Positions 2,470-61,947 of a stretch of 64,000 nt of DNA are shown here, in pieces (the first letter of the stretch is position 1; every line of letters begins with the position of its first letter). The stretch comes from Gammaproteobacteria bacterium (GTDB taxonomy: Bacteria > Pseudomonadota > Gammaproteobacteria > RBG-16-57-12): NCBI GenBank assembly GCA_022712945.1, contig JAFLJP010000057.1:35449-99448 (forward strand), in the 5' to 3' direction. The translations under genes were made by a program, and so were the position numbers. The notes under the pieces were generated by a model. The model was not told the origin of the DNA, did not search any database, and was given only the letters and a program-made list of their open reading frames with translations.

Positions 2470-2474
2470 CGCTA

Positions 2475-3045
2475 GAAGCCTGTCCGAGAATAGATAGGCC
2501 TACTGCGAAAGCGTGTTTTTTGCTCATTTTCCCGCCAAATTTTTAGACTGTAAGTCATTCTGTGTAACGGCCGGTTTTAAATCACTGAGGGTTCTATTCT
2601 CCGCAGCTTGCTGCGGGGTAGTTTATTGTAGTCCGTCAAACGCTCTTCAAACTCAATGATAAAACGATTCAGTGCGGGTTTCCAATTCCTAATTGGCATT
2701 GTCCATTTTTTAGCCGCCGCTTGTGTCGCCAAGTAGATCACTTTTTTGGCTGAGTCATCCGTCGGAAACAGTTTCCGTTTTTTAATCGCTTTGCGAATAA
2801 CACTGTTCAGCGATTCAATGGCGTTGGTGGTGTAGATGACTTTACGAATATCATCAGGATAGTTGAACAAGGTGTTGAAGTTATGCCAATGATTTCGCCA
2901 TGAACGGCTGATCTGCGGGTATTTGTCATCCCAGCGCTCGGCAAATTGTTCGAGTGCTAACAGGGCTTCTTCTTTAGTCACTGACTGATAAATTTTCTTC
3001 AGCTCAGCTGCCACAGTCTTAATAGTCTTTCCATGGCACATACTT
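2475..3045 (-). mobile_element. Truncated IS256-family element: terminal repeat plus transposase 3' fragment
   Basis: The terminus 'agcctgtccgagaatagataggcctactgcgaaagcgtgttttttgctcattttcccgcc' is the reverse complement of the right end of the 24901-25067 element. It is followed by a transposase C-terminal fragment. The N-terminal ~250 codons are missing. Confidence 0.75.
2577..3041 (-). pseudogene. IS256/mutator-family transposase, C-terminal 154-aa fragment
   Basis: The translation (YTTNAIESLNSVIRKAIKKRKLFPTDDSAKKVIYLATQAAAKKWTMPIRNWKPALNRF) matches the conserved C-terminal block of IS256 transposases. Full-length proteins are about 400 aa. Confidence 0.8.
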
Positions 3046-3290
3046 CATCGTGTTACGCACCATGTGAATGATACAGAACTGTATTTGGGCCTGTGGATAT
3101 ACGGCATGCTGGGGCTAATGATAGGCAATTACACAGATTTCAGTACAGTCTCAGCCAGAGTTCGCTACTCTATTTAGAGCTCGTACATAAGTACGCATTT
3201 ATTTTTTTATTGGAGCGGTTTTATTGTTGACAACGGGGGAGTCCACATAAGTTACAAACTATCTTTCGTGCAAAGGTCTCAATACAACCT

Positions 3291-3388
3291 AGGAGGCTGT
3301 CCGAGAATAGAGGTTGTAGCGAGAGAGTGTGATTTTTAGTTCATTTTTTCGATAATTTGAGGCGAATGGTTGTTCTCTTTAACGAAAA
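3291..3388 (+). mobile_element. Solo IS256-type left-end fragment
   Basis: 'taggaggctgtccgagaatagaggttgtagcgagagagtgtgatttttagttcattttttcgataatttgaggcgaatggttgttctctttaacgaaaa' is about 95% identical to 24901-25000 and to 61731-61808. No adjacent transposase ORF. Confidence 0.7.
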
Positions 3389-3575: not shown

Positions 3576-6035
3576 ATGAATGATGTTAACGAAACAGCTG
3601 ATAAAACGACCAGCAACCAGGGACTCTCCAGCGATGAGGCAGCGCGTCGTCTAACACAATATGGCCCCAATGCTCTGGAAGATAAGCAGGTTTCTGTTCT
3701 AAGACGCCTGCTCGGTTATTTCTGGGGACCTATTCCGTGGATGATTGAAATCGCGGCGATACTCTCTGCGCTGGTGCAGCACTGGGCCGATTTCTGGATC
3801 ATTATCACACTGCTGATCTTTAATGCAGCAGTGGGTTTCTGGCAAGAGTACACCGCTGGTAATGCGGTGGCCGCATTGATGAAGCAGCTGGCGATGAGGG
3901 CGCGTGTACGGCGCGATAAACAGTGGCAAGAGATCGATGCACAGAGACTGGTGCCGGGCGATATCGTGCGCATTCGCCTCGGCGATGTCATTCCCGCTGA
4001 TGTTAAATTGATAGAGGGTGATTATCTGAGCGTGGATCAGTCGGCACTCACCGGCGAATCACTGCCCACCACCAAGCGCACAGGCGATGATGCCTTTTCG
4101 GGAACGGTAGTCAAACAAGGCGAGGTCGTTGCACAAGTGATGGCAACAGGGGCCAATACCCGTTTTGGTAAAACAGCCAGCCTAGTGCAGCAGGCAAAAA
4201 CCGTCTCTCACTTTCAGAAGGCGGTTCTCTCCATCGGTGATTACCTGATCTACGTCAGCCTAGCACTGGTGGCCATCCTGATTATCGTTGGCTTACACCG
4301 GGGTTCCGACTGGCTGGAGCTGGTGCAATTTGCACTGATCCTTACCGTTGCCTCCATTCCCGTTGCCATGCCGGCGGTGCTCTCCATGACCATGGCGATG
4401 GGGGCCATGGCGCTGTCGAAACGCAAGGCGATCGTTACCCGTCTGGAGTCGATCGAAGAGATGGCCAGCATGGATGTTTTATGCTCGGATAAAACAGGTA
4501 CCTTGACGCAAAATCGCCTGACATTAGGTGAGATCGAAATTTTTCATGCCAAGGATGAGCAGGAGGTCTTGTTAGCGGCGGCACAAGCCTCGCGTGAAGA
4601 GGACAGGGATGCCATCGATGATGCCGTGCTGGAAGGACTGAAAGATAAAAGTCAGCTCACGGCCTTTCGCCAAACCGATTTCATCCCCTTTGACCCCGTA
4701 CACAAGCGCACGGAAGCCACCTTACAGGATGCCAGCGGCAGCACCTTTCAAACCGTCAAAGGCGCACCGCAGGTTGTTATGGAAATGGCGGGACTTGAGG
4801 GGGAGGGGCTGACACGCGCCCAGCAAATCATCGATGACTTCGCGCAGCAGGGCTATCGCGCCCTCGGGGTTGCGCACCGGGAAAGTGGCTCCGCCAGTTG
4901 GACCTTTCTTGGCATTCTATCTCTGTTTGATCCACCACGCGAAGACTCTGCGACAACCATTGCCGAGACACGCGCCTACGGCGTTAGCATGAAAATGGTG
5001 ACGGGCGACAACTTGTCTATCGCCAAACAGATTGCCACAAAATTGGGGTTGGGCAGCAATATTTTGCGTGCTGATGCCTTGCCCAGCGGAAACAGTGGCC
5101 TAGATCATCGAGAGAGCATAAAGGCGGTAGAGGGCGCGGATGGCTTTGCCGAGGTCTTTCCCGAGCATAAATTCGAAATTGTTAAAATCCTGCAAAATCG
5201 CAATCACATTACCGGCATGACCGGCGACGGCGTCAACGATGCCCCAGCTTTAAAGCAGGCCGACGTGGGGATCGCCGTCAGTGGCGCAACCGATGCCGCA
5301 CGCGCCGCCGCAGATCTAGTACTGACCGGGCCGGGGCTATCAGTGATCACCCATGCCATCGAGGAGGCACGACGCATTTTCGAGCGTATGAATGCCTACG
5401 CTATTTACCGCATCAGCGAAACCATTCGCATCATGTTCTTCGTGGTGCTGGCGATGATTTTTTTCGACTTCTATCCCATCACCGCAATCATGATCATCCT
5501 GCTCGCCTTCTTCAACGACCTGCCCATCATGACCATCGCGTACGATCGCACCGGACTGGAGAAAGGCCCGGTGAGATGGAACATGCGCCAAGTCATTACC
5601 GTGGCCACCGTCATGGGTATCGTCGGCGTGGTGGGCAGCTTTGGTATGTTGCTGATTGCTATGGACTGGCTGCACCTGGACGTGGCGCAAATTCAGACCT
5701 ATGTATTCCTGAAAATGGCCATTGCCGGGCACCTGGTGTTGTTCGTTGCACGAACCAAAGGGCATTTCTGGGAGCGTCCCTGGCCCGCCCCGATCATGAT
5801 CTGGTCTGCGCTAATCACCAAACTGGCCGCAACACTGTTGGCGGCCTACGGCTTCGGACTCATCACCCCCATTACCTGGCCAGAAATCGCACTCATCTGG
5901 AGTTATTCGTTCGCCTCCGCCTTGCTCACCGACTGGGTCAAGGTTCAGGTCTATCGCCACATGTCACAGGAGGCACCTCGCCATCGTGGTTTTCTGGCGC
6001 GGCTGAAAAAATCCCTGCATGTTTTTGGACGTTAG
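3576..6035 (+). CDS. P-type ATPase, type IIIA (plasma-membrane H+-ATPase family)
   Basis: 819 aa with DKTGTLT, TGD and [10 protein letters not shown] motifs. The N-terminus resembles plant and fungal PMA/AHA proton pumps (GLSSDEAARRLTQYGPNALEDKQVSVLRRLLGYFWGPIPWMIEIAAI). This is not the MgtA or Kdp signature. Confidence 0.85.
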   Translation: MNDVNETADKTTSNQGLSSDEAARRLTQYGPNALEDKQVSVLRRLLGYFWGPIPWMIEIAAILSALVQHWADFWIIITLLIFNAAVGFWQEYTAGNAVAALMKQLAMRARVRRDKQWQEIDAQRLVPGDIVRIRLGDVIPADVKLIEGDYLSVDQSALTGESLPTTKRTGDDAFSGTVVKQGEVVAQVMATGANTRFGKTASLVQQAKTVSHFQKAVLSIGDYLIYVSLALVAILIIVGLHRGSDWLELVQFALILTVASIPVAMPAVLSMTMAMGAMALSKRKAIVTRLESIEEMASMDVLCSDKTGTLTQNRLTLGEIEIFHAKDEQEVLLAAAQASREEDRDAIDDAVLEGLKDKSQLTAFRQTDFIPFDPVHKRTEATLQDASGSTFQTVKGAPQVVMEMAGLEGEGLTRAQQIIDDFAQQGYRALGVAHRESGSASWTFLGILSLFDPPREDSATTIAETRAYGVSMKMVTGDNLSIAKQIATKLGLGSNILRADALPSGNSGLDHRESIKAVEGADGFAEVFPEHKFEIVKILQNRNHITGMTGDGVNDAPALKQADVGIAVSGATDAARAAADLVLTGPGLSVITHAIEEARRIFERMNAYAIYRISETIRIMFFVVLAMIFFDFYPITAIMIILLAFFNDLPIMTIAYDRTGLEKGPVRWNMRQVITVATVMGIVGVVGSFGMLLIAMDWLHLDVAQIQTYVFLKMAIAGHLVLFVARTKGHFWERPWPAPIMIWSALITKLAATLLAAYGFGLITPITWPEIALIWSYSFASALLTDWVKVQVYRHMSQEAPRHRGFLARLKKSLHVFGR

Positions 6036-6193
6036 GGATGTAGAAGAAGTTAACGTACCGTTATTACGCCGAATTGTTGTTCACCCTATCTAGGCCGGTA
6101 TTGGGCGCATAGTGAGCTACGCAACGAATACCGGCCTAGAGAGGGTGGGCGAAAAGAGAAGTAAGCGCGGTATTTTAATAAATTCTACATCCC
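6036..6193. mobile_element. MITE1 copy (158 bp). TIR is gggatgtagaa...ttctacatccc, 3-bp TSD is TTA, with an internal 13-bp palindrome
   Basis: The element is about 95% identical to 11083-11241. The target-site duplication TTA lies at 6032-6034 and 6194-6196. The ATPase stop codon TAG (6033-6035) straddles the TSD and element boundary. Confidence 0.85.
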
Positions 6194-6869
6194 TTAACAA
6201 TGAGAAGTTCAACTGTGACTACAACGCATTCCGCATGGAAACCTTTGAAAATACGACAGACCCTCTTGCTCATCGTACGGTCATTTTTTATCGCGTTCCC
6301 CGCCATGGCAACTGAGAATGTATCAATGCCCGTAACGGGGAAGCTCACGCTCTCCGGCATTGTCCAACTTGGTCACCCTGTGGGCCGGCCTTTCATGACA
6401 ATCATTCAGTCGTTGTCACCGCAGTGAAATGTTTCTCCAAAAACATCCATTTCAAGGCAACGAATATTTGGTAGGCTCAAGTCCGAGGCCTGAATCCCAT
6501 TCACAGTCGAATGCTGTATAGACTCAGCAGCAACGCCCTGGGAGGCTATGAATAGGTCTGGTTGGGCTTAATCAGAGTTTCTTTGAGTAATGCTCAATAA
6601 GCCTGTCCGCAAGGTCAGAAGATCATTGGTGGTGGTGATTTTGTGAGGTAGTATGTGCATAGGTCTTGTCTGTATCACCGATTGGGCACGGGTTTGTTTG
6701 GTCGCTAACCATTGTACAGCCAAGGTTTTTTGCGTTTTAGATATTTAAATCGGCTTCTTTGATGAGGCTGTTCTAAACTATTCAAGTTACGGTGTGGATG
6801 TGCGATAACCTCCTTCCACAGCATGCCCTGTAAATGGGTGGTAAAATGCCACCGTTGATGCCGACATAG

Positions 6870-11070: not shown

Positions 11071-11082
11071 TTTTTCAGATTA

Positions 11083-11241
11083 GGGATGTAGAAGAAGTTA
11101 AAGTACCGTTATTACGCCGAATTTTTGTTCACCCTATCTAGGCCGGTATTGGGCGCATAGTGAGCTACGCAACGAATACCGGCCTAGATAGGGTGGGCGA
11201 AAAGACAAGTAAGAGCGGTATTTTAATAAATTCTACATCCC
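11083..11241. mobile_element. MITE1 copy (159 bp), TSD TTA
   Basis: Same TIRs and internal sequence as 6036-6193. TTA lies at 11080-11082 and 11242-11244. The element fills the 177-bp gap between the upstream gene's stop (11248) and the downstream gene's start (11070). Confidence 0.85.
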
Positions 11242-11247
11242 TTAGGC

Positions 11248-11670
11248 TCAATAGAGTAGCCCGTAGTTGGCGATGCCGCCTACGTGGGTAAACAGCCAGA
11301 GGGGAATGAAGATGCGCCCCATTCGTCGGTGTTTCTGGTTGATACGCCGTGCGAGCGGGGATTCCCCCTTATGAAATCGTGCCCAGAGCATCAGTGTGCT
11401 GCCCACTAATGGAATCAGGGCGATTGAGCCGTGGATGATAAGCCAGGTGAGCATGAGCGGGTCGGGCAGTTGGGGCATCTCACCAGGGATCAGGTAGCGA
11501 AGCAGGTAGCTGATAACAAAGGTCCAAGAGCCGACAACCATCAAAATCATGATGATACGGTGGCGCTGGGTGCGGGAATTGACCGCATCACGCCAGGCCA
11601 GTAGCAGCAGCCCGATGGCCAGGATGCTCCAGAGAAGGCCGAAATTTACTGAGAGTTGAGTGAAAGTCAC
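11248..11670 (-). CDS. Small 4-TM membrane protein (DUF420-like), function unknown
   Basis: 140 aa with four hydrophobic helices. The family assignment is tentative. Confidence 0.4.
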   Translation of the reverse strand: MTFTQLSVNFGLLWSILAIGLLLLAWRDAVNSRTQRHRIIMILMVVGSWTFVISYLLRYLIPGEMPQLPDPLMLTWLIIHGSIALIPLVGSTLMLWARFHKGESPLARRINQKHRRMGRIFIPLWLFTHVGGIANYGLLY

Positions 11671-12392: not shown

Positions 12393-12550
12393 GGAAGCTC
12401 TGAATAAGCGGGGTTAGAATTAGGCTGAGCGGGAATTGTTCTCATTTGTTTCGAAATGCGCAGTAATAGTCGCTCTATTGGAGCAATTTTCGGGACAAAT
12501 GAGGGCGATTTCAGCCAGTATAAAATAATCATGACTTGTTCAGAGCTTCC
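12393..12550. mobile_element. MITE2 copy (158 bp). TIR is ggaagctctgaataag...cttgttcagagcttcc, 4-bp TSD is TAAA
   Basis: TAAA lies at 12389-12392 and 12551-12554. The element is about 90% identical, inverted, to 15104-15261. The stop codon (TAG, minus strand) of the downstream ORF overlaps the last base plus the TSD. Confidence 0.85.
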
Positions 12551-15103: not shown

Positions 15104-15261
15104 GAAAGCTCTGAATAAGTCATGATTATTTTAGGCTGGCTGAAATCGCCCTCATTTATCCCGAAAATTGCACCAATAGAGCGACTATTACTGCACATTT
15201 CGAAACAAATGAGAACAATTTCCTCTCAGCCTAAATTTAACCAGACTTATTCAGAGCTTCC
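15104..15261. mobile_element. MITE2 copy (158 bp), inverted orientation, TSD TTAA
   Basis: TTAA lies at 15100-15103 and 15262-15265. The stop codon of the upstream gene at 15262-15264 lies inside the TSD. The element ends 14 bp before the arfB ATG. Confidence 0.85.
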
Positions 15262-19168: not shown

Positions 19169-19375
19169 GTGATCGGCTGATCATTCCATAGTTTTAGTCA
19201 GGGCGGGGCACCAAACTTAATAGCCACCAGATTTGGCTGGTGGTGGTTGAGCGCATTGGTGTCACAGGGGAATTTATGGGGAAGTCCCGTACCCGTGATT
19301 ACGGGTGGCTGAATAAATATTTCCTGTGGAATCAAGAGGCAAGTGAGATTGTACATAATTTATGAATGATCCGGG

Positions 19376-20616: not shown

Positions 20617-20651
20617 TTCGTCAAAACGATGCGTTTTAGTGAAAGGCTTTA

Positions 20652-20684
20652 GGGTGGGGGGAAAGACAAGTAAGAGCGGTATGC
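20652..20684. repeat. MITE1 internal fragment (about 33 bp)
   Basis: 'agggtggggggaaagacaagtaagagcggtat' matches the MITE1 interior ('agggtgggcgaaaagacaagtaagagcggtat'). It has no TIRs. Confidence 0.4.
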
Positions 20685-24900: not shown

Positions 24901-25067
24901 TCTAGGAGCCTGTCCGAGAATAGAGGTCGTAGCGAGAGAGTGTGATTTTTAGTTCATTTTTTCGACAATTTGAGACGAATGGTTGTTCCCTTTAACGAAA
25001 ATTGGCGGGAAAATGAGCAAAAAACACGCTTTCGCAGTAGACCTATCTATTTTCGGACAGGCTCCTA
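24901..25067. mobile_element. MITE-like IS256-derived element (167 bp) with 22-bp perfect TIRs (ctaggagcctgtccgagaatag)
   Basis: The left 100 bp match the solo ends at 3291-3388 and 61731-61808. The right 65 bp match the IS end at 2475-2540 in reverse complement. No coding capacity. Confidence 0.8.
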
Positions 25068-25101
25068 GGTTACTATGACGCCATTATAACAGAGGCCGTG
25101 G

Positions 25102-32998: not shown

Positions 32999-33210
32999 GC
33001 ACCTTGAGTAGGGAGTTCATTAGTCTGTGGAGATAAACACGCCATAAAACAGCCGTTTGATCTTGATGGTACTATTATTGGTGCGTAAAACGCACCCTAC
33101 GTTTGGGTGATTGGATTTCATGCACCATAAAAGTGGGCTTTAGTGGCGATGCGCTGCTTTGTTTGAAGGTCATTGTCGAGCTGTTTGAGAGCTGAACACT
33201 GCTTGGCTTA

Positions 33211-33282
33211 GGGATGTAGAATTTATTAAAATACCGCTCGGACTTGTCTTTTTTCCCACTCTATCTAGACCGGTATTCGTTC
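33211..33282. mobile_element. MITE1 truncated copy (about 72 bp of one end)
   Basis: Starts with the TSD-like TTA (33208-33210) plus 'gggatgtagaatttattaaaataccgc...ctatctagaccggtattcg', then diverges ('ttcagagcttg'). Confidence 0.55.
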
Positions 33283-34342: not shown

Positions 34343-34368
34343 ATGATTATCTGTCTGAAAATTATTTA

Positions 34369-34527
34369 GGAACGAGCGCGGAATAACTTATGCAGTTATG
34401 ACGCAGAAATTTTTCTCCAGTTCAAACGATCTCAAGAGGCGCATAGCTGGCTTACGTAACGATTGAGATCGTTTGAACTGGGGTGAAAGAGCAAGTCAGA
34501 ATGTAGGCGTTATTTCGTGATCGTTCC
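34369..34527. mobile_element. MITE3 copy (159 bp). TIR is ggaacgagc...gatcgttcc, TSD is TTA, with an internal 15-bp palindrome
   Basis: About 93% identical to 42036-42194. TTA lies at 34366-34368 and 34528-34530. The internal perfect inverted repeat is ttcaaacgatctcaa / ttgagatcgtttgaa. It sits in the divergent promoter region, 27 bp from the apaG ATG. Confidence 0.85.
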
Positions 34528-34603
34528 TTAGGGAAACTTTGAGCAAACGGCTCAGAGCTACCCCAATTATAACCGAACACCATCCGAGGGGAAGGGGAGT
34601 TAA

Positions 34604-39459: not shown

Positions 39460-40300
39460 TCAAAATAAAGTTCCTGATACCGGGCATGAGTGGGATGGTA
39501 TCCGCGAACTGACAAACCCACCGCCACGCTGGTGGAATATTGCATTCATTATGAGCTTTGTATGGTTGGTGGCATATATCATCATCTATCCATCCATTCC
39601 TCTAGTGAATGATTACACCAAAGGCGTCACTGGCTGGACCGCGCTGCAAGAGTATAAAGATGCCGTTGCTGCGAATGATGCTATTCGTGCGCCATACATC
39701 GCAAAGTTAGAGAAGATGAGTGCTGAAGAGATCCTTGGGGATCAAGAGATGAAAAACTTCGCCAACTCTTATACTAATGCGTTGTTTGGTGATCGGTGTG
39801 CATCGTGTCACGGTTCAAATGGACAGGGCGTTGAGAAAATGTTCCCTGTGCTGAATGACGATGACTGGTTGTACGGTGGCACCTTGCAGGATATAACAGA
39901 CACCATCGTAGATGGTCGTGTTGGTTTTATGTCTGCATTTCAGGGGCAACTTGATGAAGCAGAGATAGGTCAGCTTGCTGATTTTGTAATGAATGTTTCA
40001 TCTGGTAGCGCGACTCAAGCTGGTTGGGATGCATATAACAATGCAGGTTGCTCAGGTTGTCACGGTGAAGATGCGAAAGGGAACAAGTGGGTTGGCGCTG
40101 CTAACCTGACCGATGGTATCTGGCGCTTCGGCAGCAGCCGTGATGACGTTCTTAAGACTATCAAATTTGGTGTAAACCAAGATGGTGTTAAAGGTACTCA
40201 GAGTGGCGTAATGCCCGGCTTTGGTGAGATGTTGTCAGCGAACGACATCAAACTTCTAACCATTAGAGTTTGGTCTCTAGGTGGCGGTCAAACTGAGTGA
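39446..40300 (+). CDS. ccoP: cbb3 oxidase subunit III (diheme c)
   Basis: Has an N-terminal TM helix and two CXXCH sites (CASCHG, CSGCHG). The start at 39446 follows a GGGAG RBS. The ORF track alternative is 39431. Confidence 0.9.
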   Translation: MAETNQNKVPDTGHEWDGIRELTNPPPRWWNIAFIMSFVWLVAYIIIYPSIPLVNDYTKGVTGWTALQEYKDAVAANDAIRAPYIAKLEKMSAEEILGDQEMKNFANSYTNALFGDRCASCHGSNGQGVEKMFPVLNDDDWLYGGTLQDITDTIVDGRVGFMSAFQGQLDEAEIGQLADFVMNVSSGSATQAGWDAYNNAGCSGCHGEDAKGNKWVGAANLTDGIWRFGSSRDDVLKTIKFGVNQDGVKGTQSGVMPGFGEMLSANDIKLLTIRVWSLGGGQTE

Positions 40301-40355
40301 TCTCTTGTTGAGAGGGGCTTGTCTCCTCTCATTTCTATGAAATAAGGAGATAGAA

Positions 40356-40472
40356 ATGGATGCAGTAGCAATTTTAGCAATACTGAGTGCAGTCGTATCT
40401 GCCATTATTTTCGTTGTCATGATTATTAAAGGCATTGCCTTGGTTAATCAGGATCCACCCGAAGAGAAATGA
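40356..40472 (+). CDS. Unannotated 38-aa single-TM ORF between ccoP and ccoG
   Basis: MDAVAILAILSAVVSAIIFVVMIIKGIALVNQDPPEEK. AGGAGA lies 6 nt upstream and a strong terminator follows. It is below the ORF-track size cut-off. Confidence 0.35.
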   Translation: MDAVAILAILSAVVSAIIFVVMIIKGIALVNQDPPEEK

Positions 40473-40493
40473 AGATTGATTGCAGTGATGAAT

Positions 40494-40526
40494 AAAGGGG
40501 CTTTTAAAGCCCCTTTATTTTTTATA
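40494..40526 (+). terminator. Rho-independent terminator
   Basis: 'aaaggggcttttaaagcccctttatttttt' forms a GC-rich stem plus T-run. Confidence 0.7.
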
Positions 40527-40598
40527 GCTATATAAAAAAACTGACCGAGTATAGTATTGGCGCATAGATTAACGGCTATGTGATGAGTGGGGGTTTAG

Positions 40599-42020
40599 GT
40601 GAGCGAGCAAAACAAGTCGAATCAAAGGAGTGAGGGTTTAGGTGAGCTTTACGAAGAGTCTCATCACGTTAATGTGGGGGGGGAGACGATTCATGCTAAA
40701 CGTATGGGTGGCCGTTTTCGTCAATATAAAGATCTAGTCTGGCTCTTTTGGATCGGCTATCTTGTGTTACCTTTTTTGCGTGTGAATGGTGAGCAGATTG
40801 TTCTATTCGATATTCCCGCACGGCAGTTTCATTTCTTTGGCGCTACCATCTATCCTCAGGATATCTGGATGCTCTCCTTTGTTCTTGTTCTTTTAGCGAT
40901 GATGCTCTTTGGTATTACCGCTATCGCAGGCCGCGTCTTCTGTGGTTTTTTCTGCTTTCAAACTGTATGGACAGATTGGTTTGTCTGGATCGAAGAGAAA
41001 ATTGAAGGCACGCCACGACAGCGACGTAAATTAGATGAGTCATCATGGAACAGTGAAAAAATAACCAAACGTGGTACGAAGTACGCAATATGGTCTTTGA
41101 TCTCTCTGGTTACCGGTATCAGCTTTGCTGCTTATTTTATGGATTCCTATGAGTTGCTAAAAGACTTAGTGACCTTTGATGCCCATATTGCCGCCTGGAC
41201 AACGCTGATATTGTTTTTTCTGGGTACCTTTATCCTTGCTGGTTTTATGCGTGAGCAGGTCTGTTTTTGGTTATGCCCTTACGCACGAATCCAGTCTGTT
41301 ATGGTGGATCGTGACTCTATTATCCCCTCTTATGATATTGCCCGTGGAGAGCCGCGTGGTAAGCTTAAAAAGGGTGTAAATGATGACCGAAAAGGTGATT
41401 GTGTCGATTGCAATCAGTGTGTAGTTGTCTGCCCGACAGGTGTTGATATTCGTGAAAGTGCTTTGCAGGAAGGCTGCATTATGTGTGGCCTCTGTGTTGA
41501 TGCTTGCGATACGGTGATGGAAAAAATTGGCAAGCCAAAAGAGTTAATTCGTTACGCATCGGACAATGAGATGCAGGGCCAAGCTCAACCTGCACTGCTG
41601 AAGCGCCCCAGAGTCATCATCTACCTGGCTATCTCTCTCGCATCAATATTGGCGATTATTTATGGTTTGGCCAGCATCCCGGCATTGGAGCTGCACGTCG
41701 TACACGAACGTCAACCGCTCTATGTGAAAATGTCTGATGGCTCGATACAAAATACCTATACCATCAAGATCTTAAATAAATTACCCGAAGCGCTTGATGT
41801 TAAGGTGACCATTGAAGGTGTTGCGGGTGCTGATATTATTGATTTGCCCGACGTGTTGACCCTGGATACGGCCAAGGTGGTTCCTTATACTATCCGTATT
41901 AAAGCGCAACAGGCGGGTATGGCAGGGGATAATGTGCCAGTTATATTCAAAGTTGAGGCACTGAATGATCCCAGTATAAACGAAGAGTATGAAAGCTTTT
42001 TTATTGGCCCATCTCGATAG
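40599..42020 (+). CDS. ccoG: Cytochrome c oxidase accessory protein CcoG (polyferredoxin)
   Basis: Has several TM helices, two 4Fe-4S motifs (CVDCNQCVVVCP; CIMCGLCVDAC), and a C-terminal FixG-like domain. Confidence 0.9.
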   Translation: MSEQNKSNQRSEGLGELYEESHHVNVGGETIHAKRMGGRFRQYKDLVWLFWIGYLVLPFLRVNGEQIVLFDIPARQFHFFGATIYPQDIWMLSFVLVLLAMMLFGITAIAGRVFCGFFCFQTVWTDWFVWIEEKIEGTPRQRRKLDESSWNSEKITKRGTKYAIWSLISLVTGISFAAYFMDSYELLKDLVTFDAHIAAWTTLILFFLGTFILAGFMREQVCFWLCPYARIQSVMVDRDSIIPSYDIARGEPRGKLKKGVNDDRKGDCVDCNQCVVVCPTGVDIRESALQEGCIMCGLCVDACDTVMEKIGKPKELIRYASDNEMQGQAQPALLKRPRVIIYLAISLASILAIIYGLASIPALELHVVHERQPLYVKMSDGSIQNTYTIKILNKLPEALDVKVTIEGVAGADIIDLPDVLTLDTAKVVPYTIRIKAQQAGMAGDNVPVIFKVEALNDPSINEEYESFFIGPSR

Positions 42021-42220
42021 GAAAGTTCTGAATAAGGAACGAGCACGGAATAACTTATGCAATTATGACGTAGAAATTTTGCTCCCGTTCAAACCAACTC
42101 AAGAGGCGCATAGCTGGCCTACGTAACGATTGAGATCGTTTGAACTGGGGTAAAAGAGCAAGTCAGAATGTAGAAGTTATTTCGTGATCGTTCCTAAGTC
42201 ATGATTTATTCAGAGCTTCC
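42021..42220. mobile_element. Composite: a 38-bp MITE2 mini-variant (TSD ATAG) carrying a nested MITE3 (42036-42194, TSD TAA)
   Basis: 'gaaagttctgaataa | MITE3 | taagtcatgatttattcagagcttcc' is flanked by ATAG at 42017-42020 and 42221-42224. MITE3 duplicated the TAA of 'ctgaaTAAgtcatg', which is seen intact in MITE2 at 15104-15261. The ccoG stop TAG lies inside the ATAG TSD. Confidence 0.85.
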
Positions 42221-42234
42221 ATAGGTAGGGTATA

Positions 42235-42783
42235 GTGAATAAAGGTAATAAGGGTGTATCTGTGAAAGAGAACGAAACTGACGATGTAATACGTGTGCCA
42301 GCGTGGAAAAGCCCTTGGGTTTGGGGGATGGCGATACTGGTGACAACGATGCTTGTTGTCAACTTTACCATGATCACTATTGGTCTAAATACGCATACCG
42401 GCTTGGTTGTAGATGACTTTTACGCGAAGGGAAAGGCTTACCTGCATGAGGAGGTAAAGCACAACGAAGCTGAGCAACGTCTGCAATGGCGTATGGTTTT
42501 AAAAGAGCCCAGTACACCAAAGCTTAATCAACTACAGCAGTACCAGTTTATTTTGAAAGATAAGCAGGGTGAGCCGATTAGTGATGCAGCGGTTGAGCTG
42601 TACGTTTATCGGGTAAATGATGCGAGCAAAGATTTTTCGATGCGGATGAAGGAAATTAGGGCCGGTGTTTATGTGGCCGAAGCTGAGTTTAAACTGCCGG
42701 GGCATTGGGATTTGATTGTGTCGGCAGTTAAAAGTGAGGAAGATCAACTTGATCTTGCGCGACGTATCTTTGTCCAGGATTGA
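42235..42783 (+). CDS. ccoH: FixH/CcoH family protein
   Basis: 182 aa with a single N-terminal TM helix and a periplasmic domain. It sits between ccoG and ccoI, as in canonical clusters. GTG start. Confidence 0.75.
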
Positions 42784-45269
42784 GTGCTCACAGCAGAATG
42801 GGTAGTCAGGTTGATAGCTGCTTTCACTGTAGCCTGGAGATCAAGTCGGGTTCGCTGGAGCAAGTTGAGATTAATGACCAGCTTGAGCGTTTCTGCTGCT
42901 CGGGTTGTGCACTGGTTTGCCAAGCCATCCACGACTCGGGTCTGGATGGCTTTTATCAGCGTGTTAGGGAGAGGGAGCTGGCACCACCTCCTGAGCTTCT
43001 TGGTAATCTTGCACAGTATGATCTTGAAGATATTCAACAGGACTTTGTTAAGGTAAATGGTACTCGGCGTGAGGCGATTCTGCTTGTTGAGGGGATCCAC
43101 TGTGCGGCTTGTGTCTGGCTGATTGAGCGTGCACTGGCCCCTCTGGAGGGTGTGCTTGAGGCTGAGGTCAATCTAGCTCACCACCGTCTTCGTCTCCGTT
43201 GGGACGATGCAAAAGTAAAACTCTCCGTGGTTCTAAAGCGACTGGCAGCTATCGGCTATTCCGCTGTTCCTTTTGACATGGAAAAACTGGAAGGGCAACA
43301 GCAAAAAGAGAACCGCGCCTTACTCTATCGCATGGCCTTTGCCGGTTTTGGTGCGATGAATATGATGTGGCTCTCTATCTCGATCTATGCCGCTGATATG
43401 TCGGCATCAGGTATGGATCTGGATCATCGTCACTTCTTGCAATGGATAAGTCTGCTGCTTGCAACACCGGTTTTACTCTATTCTGGCTGGCCTTTCTTGA
43501 AAGGTGCGCTGAGCGGTCTCCGTTACCGACAAATGACCATGGATCTACCCATCGCCATCGGTGTGGTGGTGACCTATCTCTATTCCGCATGGGCGACCAT
43601 TAATAATCACGTCGATGTCTATTTTGAAACCGTGGTGAGCTTCCTGTTTATCATTCTGGTGGGGCGATATATTGAAAGGGTAACCCGCCGCAACGCCACA
43701 TCAGCCACCAGCCGCCTGATGGAGTTGCAGCCTCGCTCGGCAACACTATTGGTTGATGGCGAAGAGACGCTGGTGGCGGTGCGCCAGTTACAGGTTGGCG
43801 ACAGAGTGATTATTCGTCCAGGTGAACGAATTCCTGTTGATGGTGTAGTGACCGAGGGTGCCAGCGATGTGAATGAATCGATGCTGACAGGTGAGGCGCT
43901 GCCAGTGAAAAAGTCGATTGGTGGCAAGGTGGTTGCGGGCAGTGTTAATAGCCAGGGAACGCTGGTGGTTGAGGTGGTGGGTATTGGTCAGCAGACCGCG
44001 CTCTCGAAAATTATTCATCTTGTCGAAGCGGCGCAAGGGTCAAAAGCGCCGATTCAAAGTATGACCGACCGGGTTGTTCCCTGGTTTGTTCTCACCACGC
44101 TATTGTTGGCTAGTGGAACCTTTATCTATTGGGCATCTACGGCTGACTATGATGTGGCTATGTTGGCGGCGGTCTCTGTGCTGATTATCACCTGCCCCTG
44201 CGCATTTGGCTTGGCCACGCCGATGAGTATTGCGGTGAGCGTTGGCCATGGTGCAAAAAATGGCCTACTGATTCGCAATGGTGCGGCACTGGAGACACTG
44301 GCGGGTGTTGATCATGTGGTTTTTGATAAAACCGGGACAATCACCCAAGGCCGCATGAGTGTTGGTGAAGTGATTCTTAATCAAGTGGCTGGGGTTAATC
44401 GTGAGCAGTTGTTGAGTTATGCGCTACTGGCAGAATCCCGTTCTGAGCATCTGGTTGCACGGGCGATTGTTCAATATGCAAAGGATCAAGGTATCTCCAC
44501 GCAAAGTGCTTCACCAGATAGTTTTACCAGTCTGCCTGGGCTTGGTGTGGTGGTTGAGGCTGACGGGCGGATTATTCAACTGGGTAGTCGGCGTCTGCTT
44601 GATCACTTAAATATTGTTTTCCCCCGAGACCTGCTGAGTACCTACGATGAAATAGAATCCTCAATGGGCGTGGCAGTGGTGGTAATGGTTGATGGTGTTG
44701 TGCTCGGCATTATCAGTGTGTTTGATCAAATTCGTGATAGTGCGGCTGCCTTAATCTGCGCGCTTAACGAACGAAATATTGGTGTGACTCTGCTGACTGG
44801 GGATAGCCAAGCGGCGGCGGATGCCGTAGCTAAAAAATTGGGCGGCACGTTGGAGGTCATCGCCGAGGTATTGCCGCAGGATAAAGACCAAGTTATCGAT
44901 ACATTGCAAAAACAGGGAAAGTCGGTGGTAATGGTTGGTGATGGGGTGAATGATGCGCCTGCATTGGCACGGGCAGATGTGGGTATTGCCATGGGCTCAG
45001 GCACGGATGTCTCGCTGGAGTGCGCTGACATGGTGTTGATGAGCAATCAATTGATGCGCCTCTTGTTTGCATTGGATCTGGCTCAGCAGACGATTAGAAC
45101 CATAAAACAAAATATCAACCTATCACTGGGATATAATGTTATCGTGGTGCCCACGGCGATGAGTGCCAGCTTGACCCCAGTGTTTGCTTCAATTGCGATG
45201 CCGATAAGCTCATTGCTGGTTATCGGCAATGCTATTTTAATCAAACGCCGTGCCAAGCTTAAAGAATAG
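42780..45269 (+). CDS. ccoI: Copper-translocating P1B-type ATPase CcoI/FixI
   Basis: Has an N-terminal CxxC metal-binding region, the CPC motif ([12 protein letters not shown]), DKTGTIT and [10 protein letters not shown]. It overlaps fixH by 4 nt. Confidence 0.9.
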
Positions 45270-48415: not shown

Positions 48416-48592
48416 CCATCTATTTGGGTAACTATTCAGCGTGTTTAGGTTTTGCCTCAAATCGAGGCATTTTCGCACGGAAAGAGGGAGCATATAGGGC
48501 ATATGTAACCGATTGAGTACGAAAATAACGAAGAGTTGAGGCAAAAAATGAATACGCTGAGTAGTTACCTATTTGGTTAACTTAATATTTCT

Positions 48593-49605: not shown

Positions 49606-49694
49606 ATTCGCTCCTTTAGAACACTACGTTGTCAGCCAATGCTTGGGATGAATTGGGTCGATAAGTTGTCGTAGTGAGCGTAGAATGGTGGCGA

Positions 49695-49740
49695 TTTCAA
49701 CGGGTGTAAAACAATCATGACTTATTCTCCGTTCCTTTGG
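49695..49740. repeat. Degraded MITE2 end remnant
   Basis: 'ggcgatttcaacgggtgtaaaacaatcatgacttattctccgttcc' aligns with the MITE2 right end 'gggcgatttcagccagtataaaataatcatgacttgttcagagcttcc'. Confidence 0.4.
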
Positions 49741-53506: not shown

Positions 53507-53525
53507 TTACTCTTTCTGGCTACTA

Positions 53526-53638
53526 AGGGATGTAGGATTTATTAAAATACCGCACTTACTTGTCTTTTTGCCCACCCTATCTAGATAGGGTGAACAACAA
53601 TTCGGCGTAATAACGGTACTTTAACTTCTTCCACATCC
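53526..53638. mobile_element. MITE1 short variant (113 bp, lacking the internal palindrome), TSD TAA
   Basis: TAA lies at 53523-53525 and 53639-53641. The TIRs are intact, and the central 'ggccggtatt...aataccggcc' segment is deleted. It sits 20 bp after the cytochrome c4 stop. Confidence 0.8.
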
Positions 53639-53714
53639 CTAAGGGCACACCGCCTACTGGCGGCGTGCCTTTTTTATGTGGGTTAATATTTAGTAGTAGG
53701 TAGTGGTGCCTTGC

Positions 53715-55328: not shown

Positions 55329-55444
55329 TGGCTTGAGGAGGTAGGCCTGCGGAGTCGTTTCTTGTTTTTTATTAGTTGGGGTTGCGTATTTGAATGAACC
55401 TCTTGCTATGCTAGCGGCATGTTTTTGTTGTTTGTAAATTAAAT

Positions 55445-56368
55445 CTAATCAGACTTGTTCAGCGCCTCCTCAAGTAAGAATTCCATTAATGCCTTCTGTG
55501 CATGAAGGCGGTTTTCCGCTTCATTCCACACCACGCTTTGGGAGCCATCGATAACGGCGGCACTGACCTCTTCACCACGGTGGGCGGGTAGGCAGTGCAT
55601 AAACAGCGCATCCGGCTTGGCCAATTGCATTAATGCTTCGTTGACCTGGAAGTCTGCAAAGGCTGCTTCGCGTGCTTTTTGCTCCTCCTCTTGTCCCATG
55701 CTTGCCCAAACATCGGTCACAATCAAGTCACTATCGGTTGCTGCAATCCGGGGGTCGTGGCTCAGAGTGACGGCATTTCCAGCGGCGGCAACCAGTGTAC
55801 CGTCAGGTTCATAACCCACCGGTGTGGCAATGTTGAGTTTAAAGCCAAACTGACGTGCGGCATTGATGTAGGAGTGGCACATATTGTTGCCATCGCCAAT
55901 CCAAGTGACGGTGCCTCCCTTGATAGAGCCTCGTTGTTCAACGTAGGCCTGCATGTCAGCCAGTAGCTGGCAAGGGTGATACATATCGGTCAGCGCGTTG
56001 ATTACCGGGACTTGTGAATACTCGGCAAAACGCTCGATTTTTTCATGCTCAAAGGTGCGGATCATGATGATGTCAACCATGCTCGATAGAACGCGTGAGG
56101 AGTCCTCTATGGGCTCACCACGGCCCAGCTGGGTATCCCTGGACGATAAAAAAATCGCATGGCCGCCAAGCTGTGCGGTACCGGCTTCAAATGAGACTCG
56201 AGTACGGGTGGATGATTTTTCAAAAATCATCCCCAGTACCTTGTTTTTCATCGGTTCATAGATTTCACCACGACGATGCATCGTTTTTAACTCAATGGCA
56301 CGACTGATCAAGCCATTGAGTTCATCCGCAGTGAAGTCCATCAGGGTCAGGAAGTGACGAAGTGCCAT
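55445..56368 (-). CDS. argF: Ornithine carbamoyltransferase
   Basis: Carries the STRTR carbamoyl-phosphate motif, HCLP, and OTCase-typical length. Confidence 0.9.
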
Positions 56369-57758: not shown

Positions 57759-58508
57759 TTACAAATCCCCGTCAGCGTGCTCATTATGGCAAAAGTTGAT
57801 TGCCGATTCATGCCTGAACTTCCCGTAAGCCAGGAAGTTAATCACTTCGCTGATCACCTGGTCATTCTGCATCAAAAATGGGTGACTCACCGGCAGGGTA
57901 ACAAACCCACACATGCCATCAACCTTGGTGCTCTCAACGGAGACTTTTCCATCATCCGGGTTGGGCAAAAAGGTGGAGAGTATTAGATTGATCGATCGGG
58001 TGCCCGCAATCACTCCCAGTTCAAAGTTGACTGCACCAAGATGTTTGGGAAGATCATCATCCCCGGTGCCGAGCTGCTGGCCTGCCGGGCCATTTAATAG
58101 ATCATACCCAGGCAGATTTTTTAACGTGTCAACAATCTCACTTCCATTGTTGGGCGGGCCGAGCATAATGACCCGCTTAACACCCTCGGGGGGGTGGTTT
58201 TTGTAATATTGACGAACCAGAATGCCGCCCAGAGAGTGGGTGACAAAATTTACCGGGTTTGATGCGTGTTCATGGCATCGAGATAAACCTTCATTGATCG
58301 CTATTTCAGAGAGCTTGATTATCTCTTTTTTCCGGGAAGGATAATCAACGTTAGCTACATAATAACCTTCGTTAGTCAGTCTCTGTTCGAGTTCATTCAT
58401 TGAGCTTGATGTTCTCGCTAGCCCGTGAAGCAATACAACGCATTCAGCGGATAGGGCGGATGCAGAGTACAGCAGCATTGAAATCAGCATTATGATTTGT
58501 CTGTTCAT
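57759..58508 (-). CDS. Secreted alpha/beta-hydrolase (lipase/esterase-like)
   Basis: Has a signal peptide and the GxSxG nucleophile elbow (THSLGG). 249 aa. Confidence 0.7.
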   Translation of the reverse strand: MNRQIIMLISMLLYSASALSAECVVLLHGLARTSSSMNELEQRLTNEGYYVANVDYPSRKKEIIKLSEIAINEGLSRCHEHASNPVNFVTHSLGGILVRQYYKNHPPEGVKRVIMLGPPNNGSEIVDTLKNLPGYDLLNGPAGQQLGTGDDDLPKHLGAVNFELGVIAGTRSINLILSTFLPNPDDGKVSVESTKVDGMCGFVTLPVSHPFLMQNDQVISEVINFLAYGKFRHESAINFCHNEHADGDL

Positions 58509-58565
58509 TTCAGTCAGTATAAAGTAGTCATGGTTTGCTTAGGAATTCCTTGAGGAGGGGGTGAG

Positions 58566-61639: not shown

Positions 61640-61730
61640 GATCCTAGAATCCTCAGATCGAAGTTAATTATTATCTACCGCCCGCTCATTATATACACAG
61701 ATTTCAACGAGCCACTGACAAAATTCATAA

Positions 61731-61808
61731 GGAGCTTGTCCGAGAATAGAGGTCGTAGCGAGAGAGTGTAATTTTTAGTTCATTTTTTCGACAATTTGAG
61801 GCGAATGG
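61731..61808 (+). mobile_element. Solo IS256-type left-end fragment (78 bp)
   Basis: 'ggagcttgtccgagaatagaggtcgtagcgagagagtgtaatttttagttcattttttcgacaatttgaggcgaatgg' matches 24903-24980 with 2 mismatches. Confidence 0.65.
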
Positions 61809-61947
61809 GCACCTTGAAAAAAGGTACTATTTTTAGAGGCGCGTTTATGTTGGCAGTACACCGGGAGAGGTTATTCCAGTATAGGTAATGGCGACAATAG
61901 GCTCTGCTTTTTCCTCGCCATTATCCCGTGCAAAATCCCCAAAGCAT

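Follow-up and report, generated by a model that had tools for sequence, protein, structure and literature searches.

Nested IS and MITE elements are common enough in prokaryotes for annotation pipelines to separate the nested copies (PMC3852290). In these nested, or "Russian doll", insertions the target duplication of the inner element consists of outer-element sequence, so that the order of the two insertions is fixed. The composite between ccoG and fixH described here shares this property but differs from the usual nested insertion in two respects. Its outer host is unusually small, at 38 bp, and the empty, outer-only and alternative-secondary-insertion states have all been kept in related lineages.

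Two groups of insertion sequences provide the closest comparisons for the elements at this locus. The ISAzo13 family is the prokaryotic counterpart of the eukaryotic Zator. IS5 itself has the target YTAR. The IS5 group generates 4-bp duplications (ISfinder). We analyzed a 64-kb stretch of DNA, the window, in which the spacer downstream of ccoG in ccoG-fixH-fixI-fixS (ccoGHIS) very probably holds a two-layer transposon fossil: an IS5-group-type MITE2 arrived, followed by MITE3 of the ISAzo13 family.

Results

Anatomy of the ccoG–fixH composite

The composite is 200 bp in length (window 42021–42220) and its element boundaries and both target-site duplications can be read directly from the window (Table 1). 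The preliminary description had placed a MITE3 inside a 38-bp mini-MITE2 at this junction, and all of its coordinates, duplications and sequences proved to be exact. Removal of MITE3 together with one TAA leaves a 38-bp near-palindrome, built from two MITE2 tips that MITE3 has split. The 38 bp correspond to the first 19–23 bases of the MITE2 left end and the last 15–19 bases of the right end, joined at TCA/TGA, and mini-MITE2 consists of nothing beyond these two ~19-bp transposon tips. Its left arm and the left end of the full-length copy at 15104 are identical except for one position. The inserted MITE3 starts with GGAACGAGCACGGAATAACTT and ends with AAGTTATTTCGTGATCGTTCC, which reads GGAACGATCACGAAATAACTT when reverse-complemented. 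A MITE3-free form of the junction would read CTGAATAA joined directly to GTCATG.

The TAA flanking MITE3 had been attributed to duplication out of the MITE2 sequence, and this attribution holds. The 15104 copy retains the target ctgaaTAAgtcatg in undisturbed form, as CTGAATAAGTCATG with one TAA. As in a nested insertion, CTGAATAAGTC is undisturbed both in that copy and at the orthologous site in three related lineages (L123, L124 and L115).

Table 1 Features of the ccoG–fixH junction and related elements in the window.
Feature	Position	Strand	Comment
Full-length MITE2, 158 bp	12393..12550	-	91% identical to the 15104 copy; TAAA/TAAA flanks; left end GGAAGCTCTGAATAAGCGGGG strongly IS5-like
Full-length MITE2, 158 bp	15104..15261	+	TTAA/TTAA flanks; holds the undisturbed MITE3 target
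Second full MITE3 copy	34369..34527	+	93% identical; TTA at 34366-34368 and 34528-34530; no MITE2 ends
ccoG/fixG	40599..42020	+	Fer4_18 and FixG_C; upstream neighbor; stop TAG 42018-42020
Outer left target-site duplication ATAG	42017..42020	.	Includes the ccoG stop TAG 42018-42020; single xTAG at the L125/L126 and L131 empty sites
Left arm of mini-MITE2 GAAAGTTCTGAATAA	42021..42035	+	MITE3 target TAA at its end (42033-42035)
MITE3, 159 bp, non-coding	42036..42194	+	ISAzo13-type terminal inverted repeats of ~21 bp; not at the orthologous site in L123, L124, L115-117
MITE3 target-site duplication TAA, right copy	42195..42197	.	Single TAA in relatives and in the 15104 MITE2 copy
Right arm of mini-MITE2 GTCATGATTTATTCAGAGCTTCC	42198..42220	+	Terminal 15 bases identical to the 15104-15261 right end
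Outer right target-site duplication ATAG	42221..42224	.	ATAG/ATAG likewise in L123
fixH/ccoH	42235..42783	+	Downstream neighbor ORF

The junction was also recovered outside the window. In eight further assemblies of the population to which the window belongs, contigs encode a FixH identical to that of the window. The same 200-bp composite spans the junction in three of these independently assembled metagenome contigs (L001, L004 and L006), with 1–3 base differences, all within MITE3. The other five contigs start inside MITE3, as expected if MITE3 is present in several copies and assemblies break at it. Thus, the three spanning contigs and the five that start in MITE3 indicate that the window junction is no assembly artefact.

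Terminal repeats link MITE3 to the ISAzo13 family

The inner repeat of MITE3 was found three times in the window, whereas shuffled sequences predict 0.00 matches. MITE3 has the properties of a MITE, being 159 bp long and non-coding, with terminal repeats of ~21 bp that contain 2 mismatches, flanks of TAA/TAA and TTA/TTA, and two copies in the window. The second full copy is bordered on both sides by ordinary unique sequence. MAGs of Sedimenticola and Leucothrix contain more divergent copies, at 70–79% identity. When species-representative genomes were scanned for the MITE3 repeat, at least 106 stretches were obtained, and the main sources among the matches listed were MAGs of Methylococcales, Leucothrix, Pseudomonadales and Sedimenticola.

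The MITE3 terminal inverted repeat (GGAACGAKCRCGRAATAACTT, ~21 bp) is also the repeat of insertion sequences of 1326–1329 bp. Elements of this length, bounded by the MITE3 repeat, are present in L066, L024, L074, L098, L103 and L108. They enclose a 404-aa ORF, and the ORF from L066 matches Pfam DDE_Tnp_ISAZ013 (PF07592, 1.9e-101) and the NCBIfam ISAzo13 transposase (NF033519, 8.9e-139). When all MITE3-type repeats of the fetched loci were paired, 28 elements ranging from 59 to 1371 bp were obtained. Identical 3-bp flanks surround 20 of these (TTA in 11, TAA in 8 and CAA in 1), and five of the remaining eight have TTA with TAA or TAG as flanks. Target duplications of 3 bp have been reported for the ISAzo13 family (PMC10045372). 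The repeat held in common with ISAzo13 insertion sequences, together with the 3-bp flanks, marks MITE3 as an ISAzo13-type MITE with a TWA target and a 3-bp duplication.

Comparison of MITE3 with the ISAzo13 insertion sequences shows the same ~21-bp terminal repeat and the same 3-bp duplication, which for MITE3 falls at TWA. Unlike these insertion sequences, MITE3 has no coding capacity and an unrelated interior, and it is the ends alone that match. The matching full-length elements come from other taxa (Methylococcaceae and others), not from the organism of the window. No transposase of the ISAzo13 or IS5 type was found in the 64-kb window or in the related contigs. Since the window encodes no such enzyme, the transposases probably act in trans, and MITE3 would have been mobilized by an ISAzo13-type DDE transposase encoded elsewhere.

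MITE2 ends resemble those of IS5

The ends of mini-MITE2 have five matches in the window, against 0.39 expected, and the hits include the two full 158-bp MITE2 copies. We compared the MITE2 ends to those of IS5A, taken from E. coli MG1655. The left ends are GGAAGCTCTGAATAAGCGGGG in MITE2 and GGAAGGTGCGAATAAGCGGGG in IS5A, and the right ends are GACTTGTTCAGAGCTTCC and GACTTGTTCGCACCTTCC, respectively. The left end of the 12393 copy is identical to the IS5A left end at 18 of 21 positions, and its right-end motif GACTTGTTC...CTTCC also matches. This copy and IS5 have GAATAAGCGGGG in common at the left end and GACTTGTTC at the right end.

All four elements seen with MITE2-type ends have flanking direct repeats of 4 bp. 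Those in the window are TAAA, TTAA and ATAG, and the one in L132 is TTAA. The L132 element was the sole find of a scan of viral contigs for a MITE2 parent and is another MITE, 128 bp in length, with the same ends and TTAA flanks. No autonomous IS5-type element with MITE2 ends was found in the window, in a local search of 122 loci, in viral contigs or in plasmids (blastn), so the assignment to the IS5 group rests on the similarity of the ends and on the length of the duplication. These two features suggest that MITE2 is a non-autonomous element of the IS5-group type. The TAAA and ATAG duplications of MITE2 do not fit the YTAR target of IS5 and, unlike IS5, the MITE2 copy at ccoG–fixH measures only 38 bp.

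Empty, outer-only and nested junctions in related lineages

To obtain orthologous junctions, we used contigs that encode either a member of the same 90%-identity FixH cluster or a FixH from the clusters nearest to it. The lineages compared are related uncultured gammaproteobacteria. The preliminary description had pointed to empty or MITE2-only junctions in relatives as informative, and both the empty state and the 38-bp element on its own were found. The empty site reads CTCGGTAG followed directly by AGGGGCATAGTG in L125 and L126. L131 and the distant L119, L120 and L122 are also empty, while L129 and L130 are empty with a 10-bp deletion, the ccoG stop overlapping the fixH GTG. L131, which is without the 38-bp element, carries a palindrome of 31 bp that has inserted into this short spacer.

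The 38-bp element is present alone in L123 as GAGAGCTCTGAATAAGTTATTATTTATTCAGAGCTTCC, with ATAG/ATAG flanks. L115–L117 contain a more decayed, 39-bp version of mini-MITE2 with ATAA/ATAG flanks and no MITE3. In L124 a different MITE of 161 bp (2326–2486) is located directly after the 38-bp element, at ATAG. The 38-bp element combined with MITE3 was observed in the window and its population only. Every lineage with the 38-bp element but without MITE3 (L123, L124 and L115–117) has a single TAA at the MITE3 site, and the window junction is longer than that of L123 by 162 bp, the 159 bp of MITE3 plus the 3-bp duplication.

Order and age of the insertions

The relatives in which the 38-bp element has a single TAA and lacks MITE3, together with the TAA duplication in the window, indicate by parsimony that the 38-bp form preceded MITE3. 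The comparison thus supports an order in which the 38-bp MITE2-derived element came first and MITE3 afterwards. We propose that a MITE2-family element entered ATAG overlapping the ccoG stop, duplicating those 4 bp, and the only form of this layer ever seen at the locus is the 38-bp palindrome of two ~19-bp terminal tips. Later, and in the lineage of the window only, MITE3 inserted into the left tip at TAA, with duplication of these three bases.

This order agrees with the one originally proposed, in which MITE2 insertion, internal deletion and MITE3 insertion followed one another, with the exception of the middle step. Full-length MITE2 was seen at the ccoG–fixH junction in none of the lineages compared, so insertion followed by deletion in place is not separable from insertion of an already minimal element. 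We infer that the 38-bp form was produced by internal deletion of a 158-bp MITE2. It is possible, although we consider it doubtful, that mini-MITE2 instead inserted as a ready-made, ends-only element that was never full-length here and underwent no deletion in place. Both the presence of the same 38–39-bp form in all four carrier lineages and the existence of ends-only minis with target duplications in the ISAzo13-type family (59, 82, 87 and 99 bp) are in keeping with such an insertion. However, no second 38-bp copy was found in the window or in the fetched loci, giving no sign of a mobile family. When JGI metagenome contigs were scanned for the core CTGAATAAGTNNTNATTTATTCAG, the only match was a chance one, located where a coding region ends in an AT-rich, unrelated contig, and a single ancient deletion inherited by descent fits the data equally well.

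The activity of MITE3 had been described as recent, which stands in a relative sense only: MITE3 is present in each of the eight contigs of the population, its two copies in the window are 7% apart, and the nearest relative, L131, which is without either element, shows ~7% nucleotide divergence. A neighbor-joining tree built from the flanking genes places L131 as sister to the window and L129 as sister to L123, both of these sisters being empty at the junction. The presence and absence of the 38-bp element is not congruent with this tree, and a single gain without loss conflicts with it. The conflict requires either recombination or two losses. Divergence of the flanks is mosaic, with values of 0.21, 0.03 and 0.08 between the window and L124 in successive 150-nt bins, and at a T/C site located 18 bp before the stop, one base is found in every filled allele and the other in every empty allele. 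The mosaic divergence and the co-segregating site favor recombination, and exchange of alleles by this route appears likelier than repeated precise loss.

The composite in its operon

The ccoNOQP-ccoG-fixHIS region had been characterized as tightly packed, which is roughly right, except that the ccoP–ccoG spacer is 298 bp long and contains a small ORF and a terminator. The best named match of CcoN is from Ca. Tenderia electrophaga (81% identity), followed by Sedimenticola, Thiodiazotropha and Sulfurivermis (78–79%). These homologues point to a host that is an uncultured gammaproteobacterium related to Ca. Tenderia, Sedimenticola and Thiodiazotropha, and not to the Methylococcales suggested by the repeat scan. 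FixH, FixI and FixS remain full-length. The real start of fixH is probably the GTG at 42256, with AAGGG before it, since the 31-bp insertion in L131 lies upstream of that GTG.

The composite folds as one long hairpin (-84.4 kcal/mol, z = -7.8), in which the outer MITE2 stem closes around the MITE3 stem. MITE3 is itself a hairpin, and the nested arrangement still lets the outer stem pair. No terminator-like site or T-run was found in 42021–42224. The promoter scan gave one weak hybrid match at 42209–42236 (TTCAGA-16-TATAGT), and the count for the region was not above shuffles. A search of 40200–42900 against Rfam at E ≤ 1 returned two insignificant matches, both outside the composite. The composite is most likely a tolerated, co-transcribed insertion, which would form a long hairpin within the ccoGHIS mRNA and let transcription continue. 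A polar effect or an effect on RNA processing is possible.

Might the 38-bp palindrome have been kept as a ccoGHIS stem-loop in at least four species-level lineages, and serve as a landing pad for palindromic elements? We regard this as unlikely. In favor of this reading are the two independent secondary MITE insertions in or beside the 38-bp element, in the lineage of the window and in L124, the palindromic insert that L131 has in the spacer, and the outer stem that still pairs in the nested arrangement. Among the window, L123 and L124, mini-MITE2 differs by 5–13% as compared with 22–30% at 4-fold degenerate sites (P 0.005–0.06, in tests that are non-independent). The decayed L115 copy, compared with L123 and L124, is not significantly slower than the 4-fold sites.

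It is highly improbable that the palindrome is a native operon hairpin, an mRNA-stabilizing or attenuating stem-loop that merely looks like MITE2. Such a hairpin would account for the 16-pair fold of -19 to -22 kcal/mol (window and L123), for a stem core that is invariant in four lineages and for the slower change relative to 4-fold sites among the window, L123 and L124. However, the palindrome agrees with the MITE2 termini at 23 of 24 left-hand bases and at all 15 right-hand bases, and it is accompanied by a perfect 4-bp direct repeat and by clean empty sites in related lineages. In addition, no T-run follows the palindrome, and it contains one compensatory pair, a level of covariation equaled in 221 of 500 shuffles and not significant. 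An intrinsic terminator or REP-like hairpin was rejected for the 38-bp palindrome, which has an AU-rich stem, no T-run, covariation not above shuffles and no Rfam match.

The preliminary description had treated the outer ends as separate from MITE3, and the reverse, that they are integral to a longer MITE3 variant or that the 200-bp composite is one unit moved via its MITE2 ends, can be given almost no credence: the outer inverted repeats are intact with a 4-bp duplication and an IS5-type transposase could in principle move the composite, but the outer ends are found neither on the MITE3 copy at 34369 nor on any related paired element in other genomes, the outer element is alone, without MITE3, in relatives (L123 and L115–L117), and the composite junction occurs, among the window and the fetched loci, at ccoG–fixH only. 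The existence of MITE3 without the outer ends and of the outer element without MITE3 contradicts the notion of integral ends.

Discussion

The ccoG–fixH composite is a well-documented but ordinary transposon fossil. Nesting of prokaryotic elements is a recognised phenomenon (PMC3852290). Its value lies in the series of states kept in a single operon spacer, which provides the element boundaries, the lengths of the duplications and the order of two MITE families without experiment. The comparison also places an abundant repeat of 159 bp in the ISAzo13 family, which has been little studied, with TWA as the indicated target and a duplication of 3 bp. For cbb3 oxidase assembly genes, the composite would matter only if the 200-bp hairpin changes the ccoG:fixH expression ratio.

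The ccoG-fixH spacer in related lineages

The short spacer between ccoG and fixH was found in six distinct states across about eight lineages. In L124, a contig of a sister lineage, a 161-bp MITE distinct from MITE3 occupies positions 2326-2486, directly 3′ of the 38-bp element of joined MITE2 tips and at its right ATAG. The ends of this MITE are CCAGGGCATTTCATGAATT and AATTTATGAATTGCCCGGG, and a partial copy with 77% identity is present in the window at 19255-19375. The L124 MITE is a second independent secondary insertion, lying about 25 bp or less from the MITE3 site.

Two further arrangements lie near the start of fixH. The closest relative (L131) carries neither MITE at the junction and has a 31-bp palindromic insert, GCATCTCCCATTTTTAGAGGTGCCCTAAAAA, at ~1390-1420, bounded by AAAGG and TAATAAGGG and orthologous to window position ~42245. 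This insert would disrupt a fixH reading frame opened at the upstream GTG, so that fixH in the window probably begins at the GTG at position 42256. Among the six states is also a deletion of 10 bp between two ATAG repeats in L129 and L130 (~1495-1505), as a result of which the fixH GTG overlaps the ccoG stop codon (CTCGATAGTGAAT).

Flanking sequences of the junction

Position 42002 of the window, 18 bp 5′ of the ccoG stop codon, is T, and the orthologous site is C in L125, L129 and L131; the two bases co-segregate perfectly with whether the 38-bp element is present. Divergence along the junction flanks is a mosaic, which suggests recombination between alleles with and without the element. In another related contig (L123, 1016-2448), ccoG is divided into two ORFs of 190 and 293 residues, the result of a frameshift or else of faulty assembly.

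The ccoP-ccoG spacer is near-identical between the window and the related contig L115, despite a 23.5% difference at ccoG 4-fold sites. The small ORF 3′ of ccoP gave no Pfam match.

Coordinates of spacer features, ISAzo13-type elements and short repeats
Feature	Location	Remarks
38-aa hydrophobic ORF, MDAVAILAILSAVVSAIIFVVMIIKGIALVNQDPPEEK	window 40356-40472	after ccoP; conserved, gene call in all related contigs
Clear terminator hairpin, AAAGGGGCTTTTAAAGCCCCTTTATTTTTT	window 40494-40523	downstream of the 38-aa ORF
566-bp ISAzo13-type copy	L087 2467-3032	transposase fragments (aa 153-251) retained
Ends-only ISAzo13-type minis, 59-99 bp	L014 918-976; L090 279-360; L091 3937-4023; L029 3354-3452	
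Short inverted-repeat family	window 2472-2542, 3289-3388, 24902-25068, 61728-61827	
Another short inverted-repeat family	window 6023-6214, 11071-11251, 20650-20682, 33190-33281, 53523-53643	
Isolated 143-bp inverted-repeat element	window 48427-48569	

Related and additional repeats

Elements with ISAzo13-type repeats form a size series that includes the 566-bp copy and the ends-only minis, most of them surrounded by TTA or TAA duplications. In five of the 28 paired elements (L019, L066, L087, L088 and L103), the two 3-bp flanks mismatch solely at their second or third position (TTA versus TAA or TAG).

The IS5-like left end of MITE2 recurs, as GGAAGCTCTGAATAAGTC, in a 128-bp MITE with TTAA/TTAA flanks on an IMG/VR viral contig (L132, 1002-1129). 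Decayed single ends akin to the MITE2 terminus (e.g. ATCATGACTTATTC) lie in the window at 49684-49740, 55435-55473 and 58497-58553; none of the three has a recognisable partner end or a duplication, and all probably represent ancient remains of related families. At least two more short repeat families with inverted-repeat structure are found there, and MITE-like repeats are abundant in the window.
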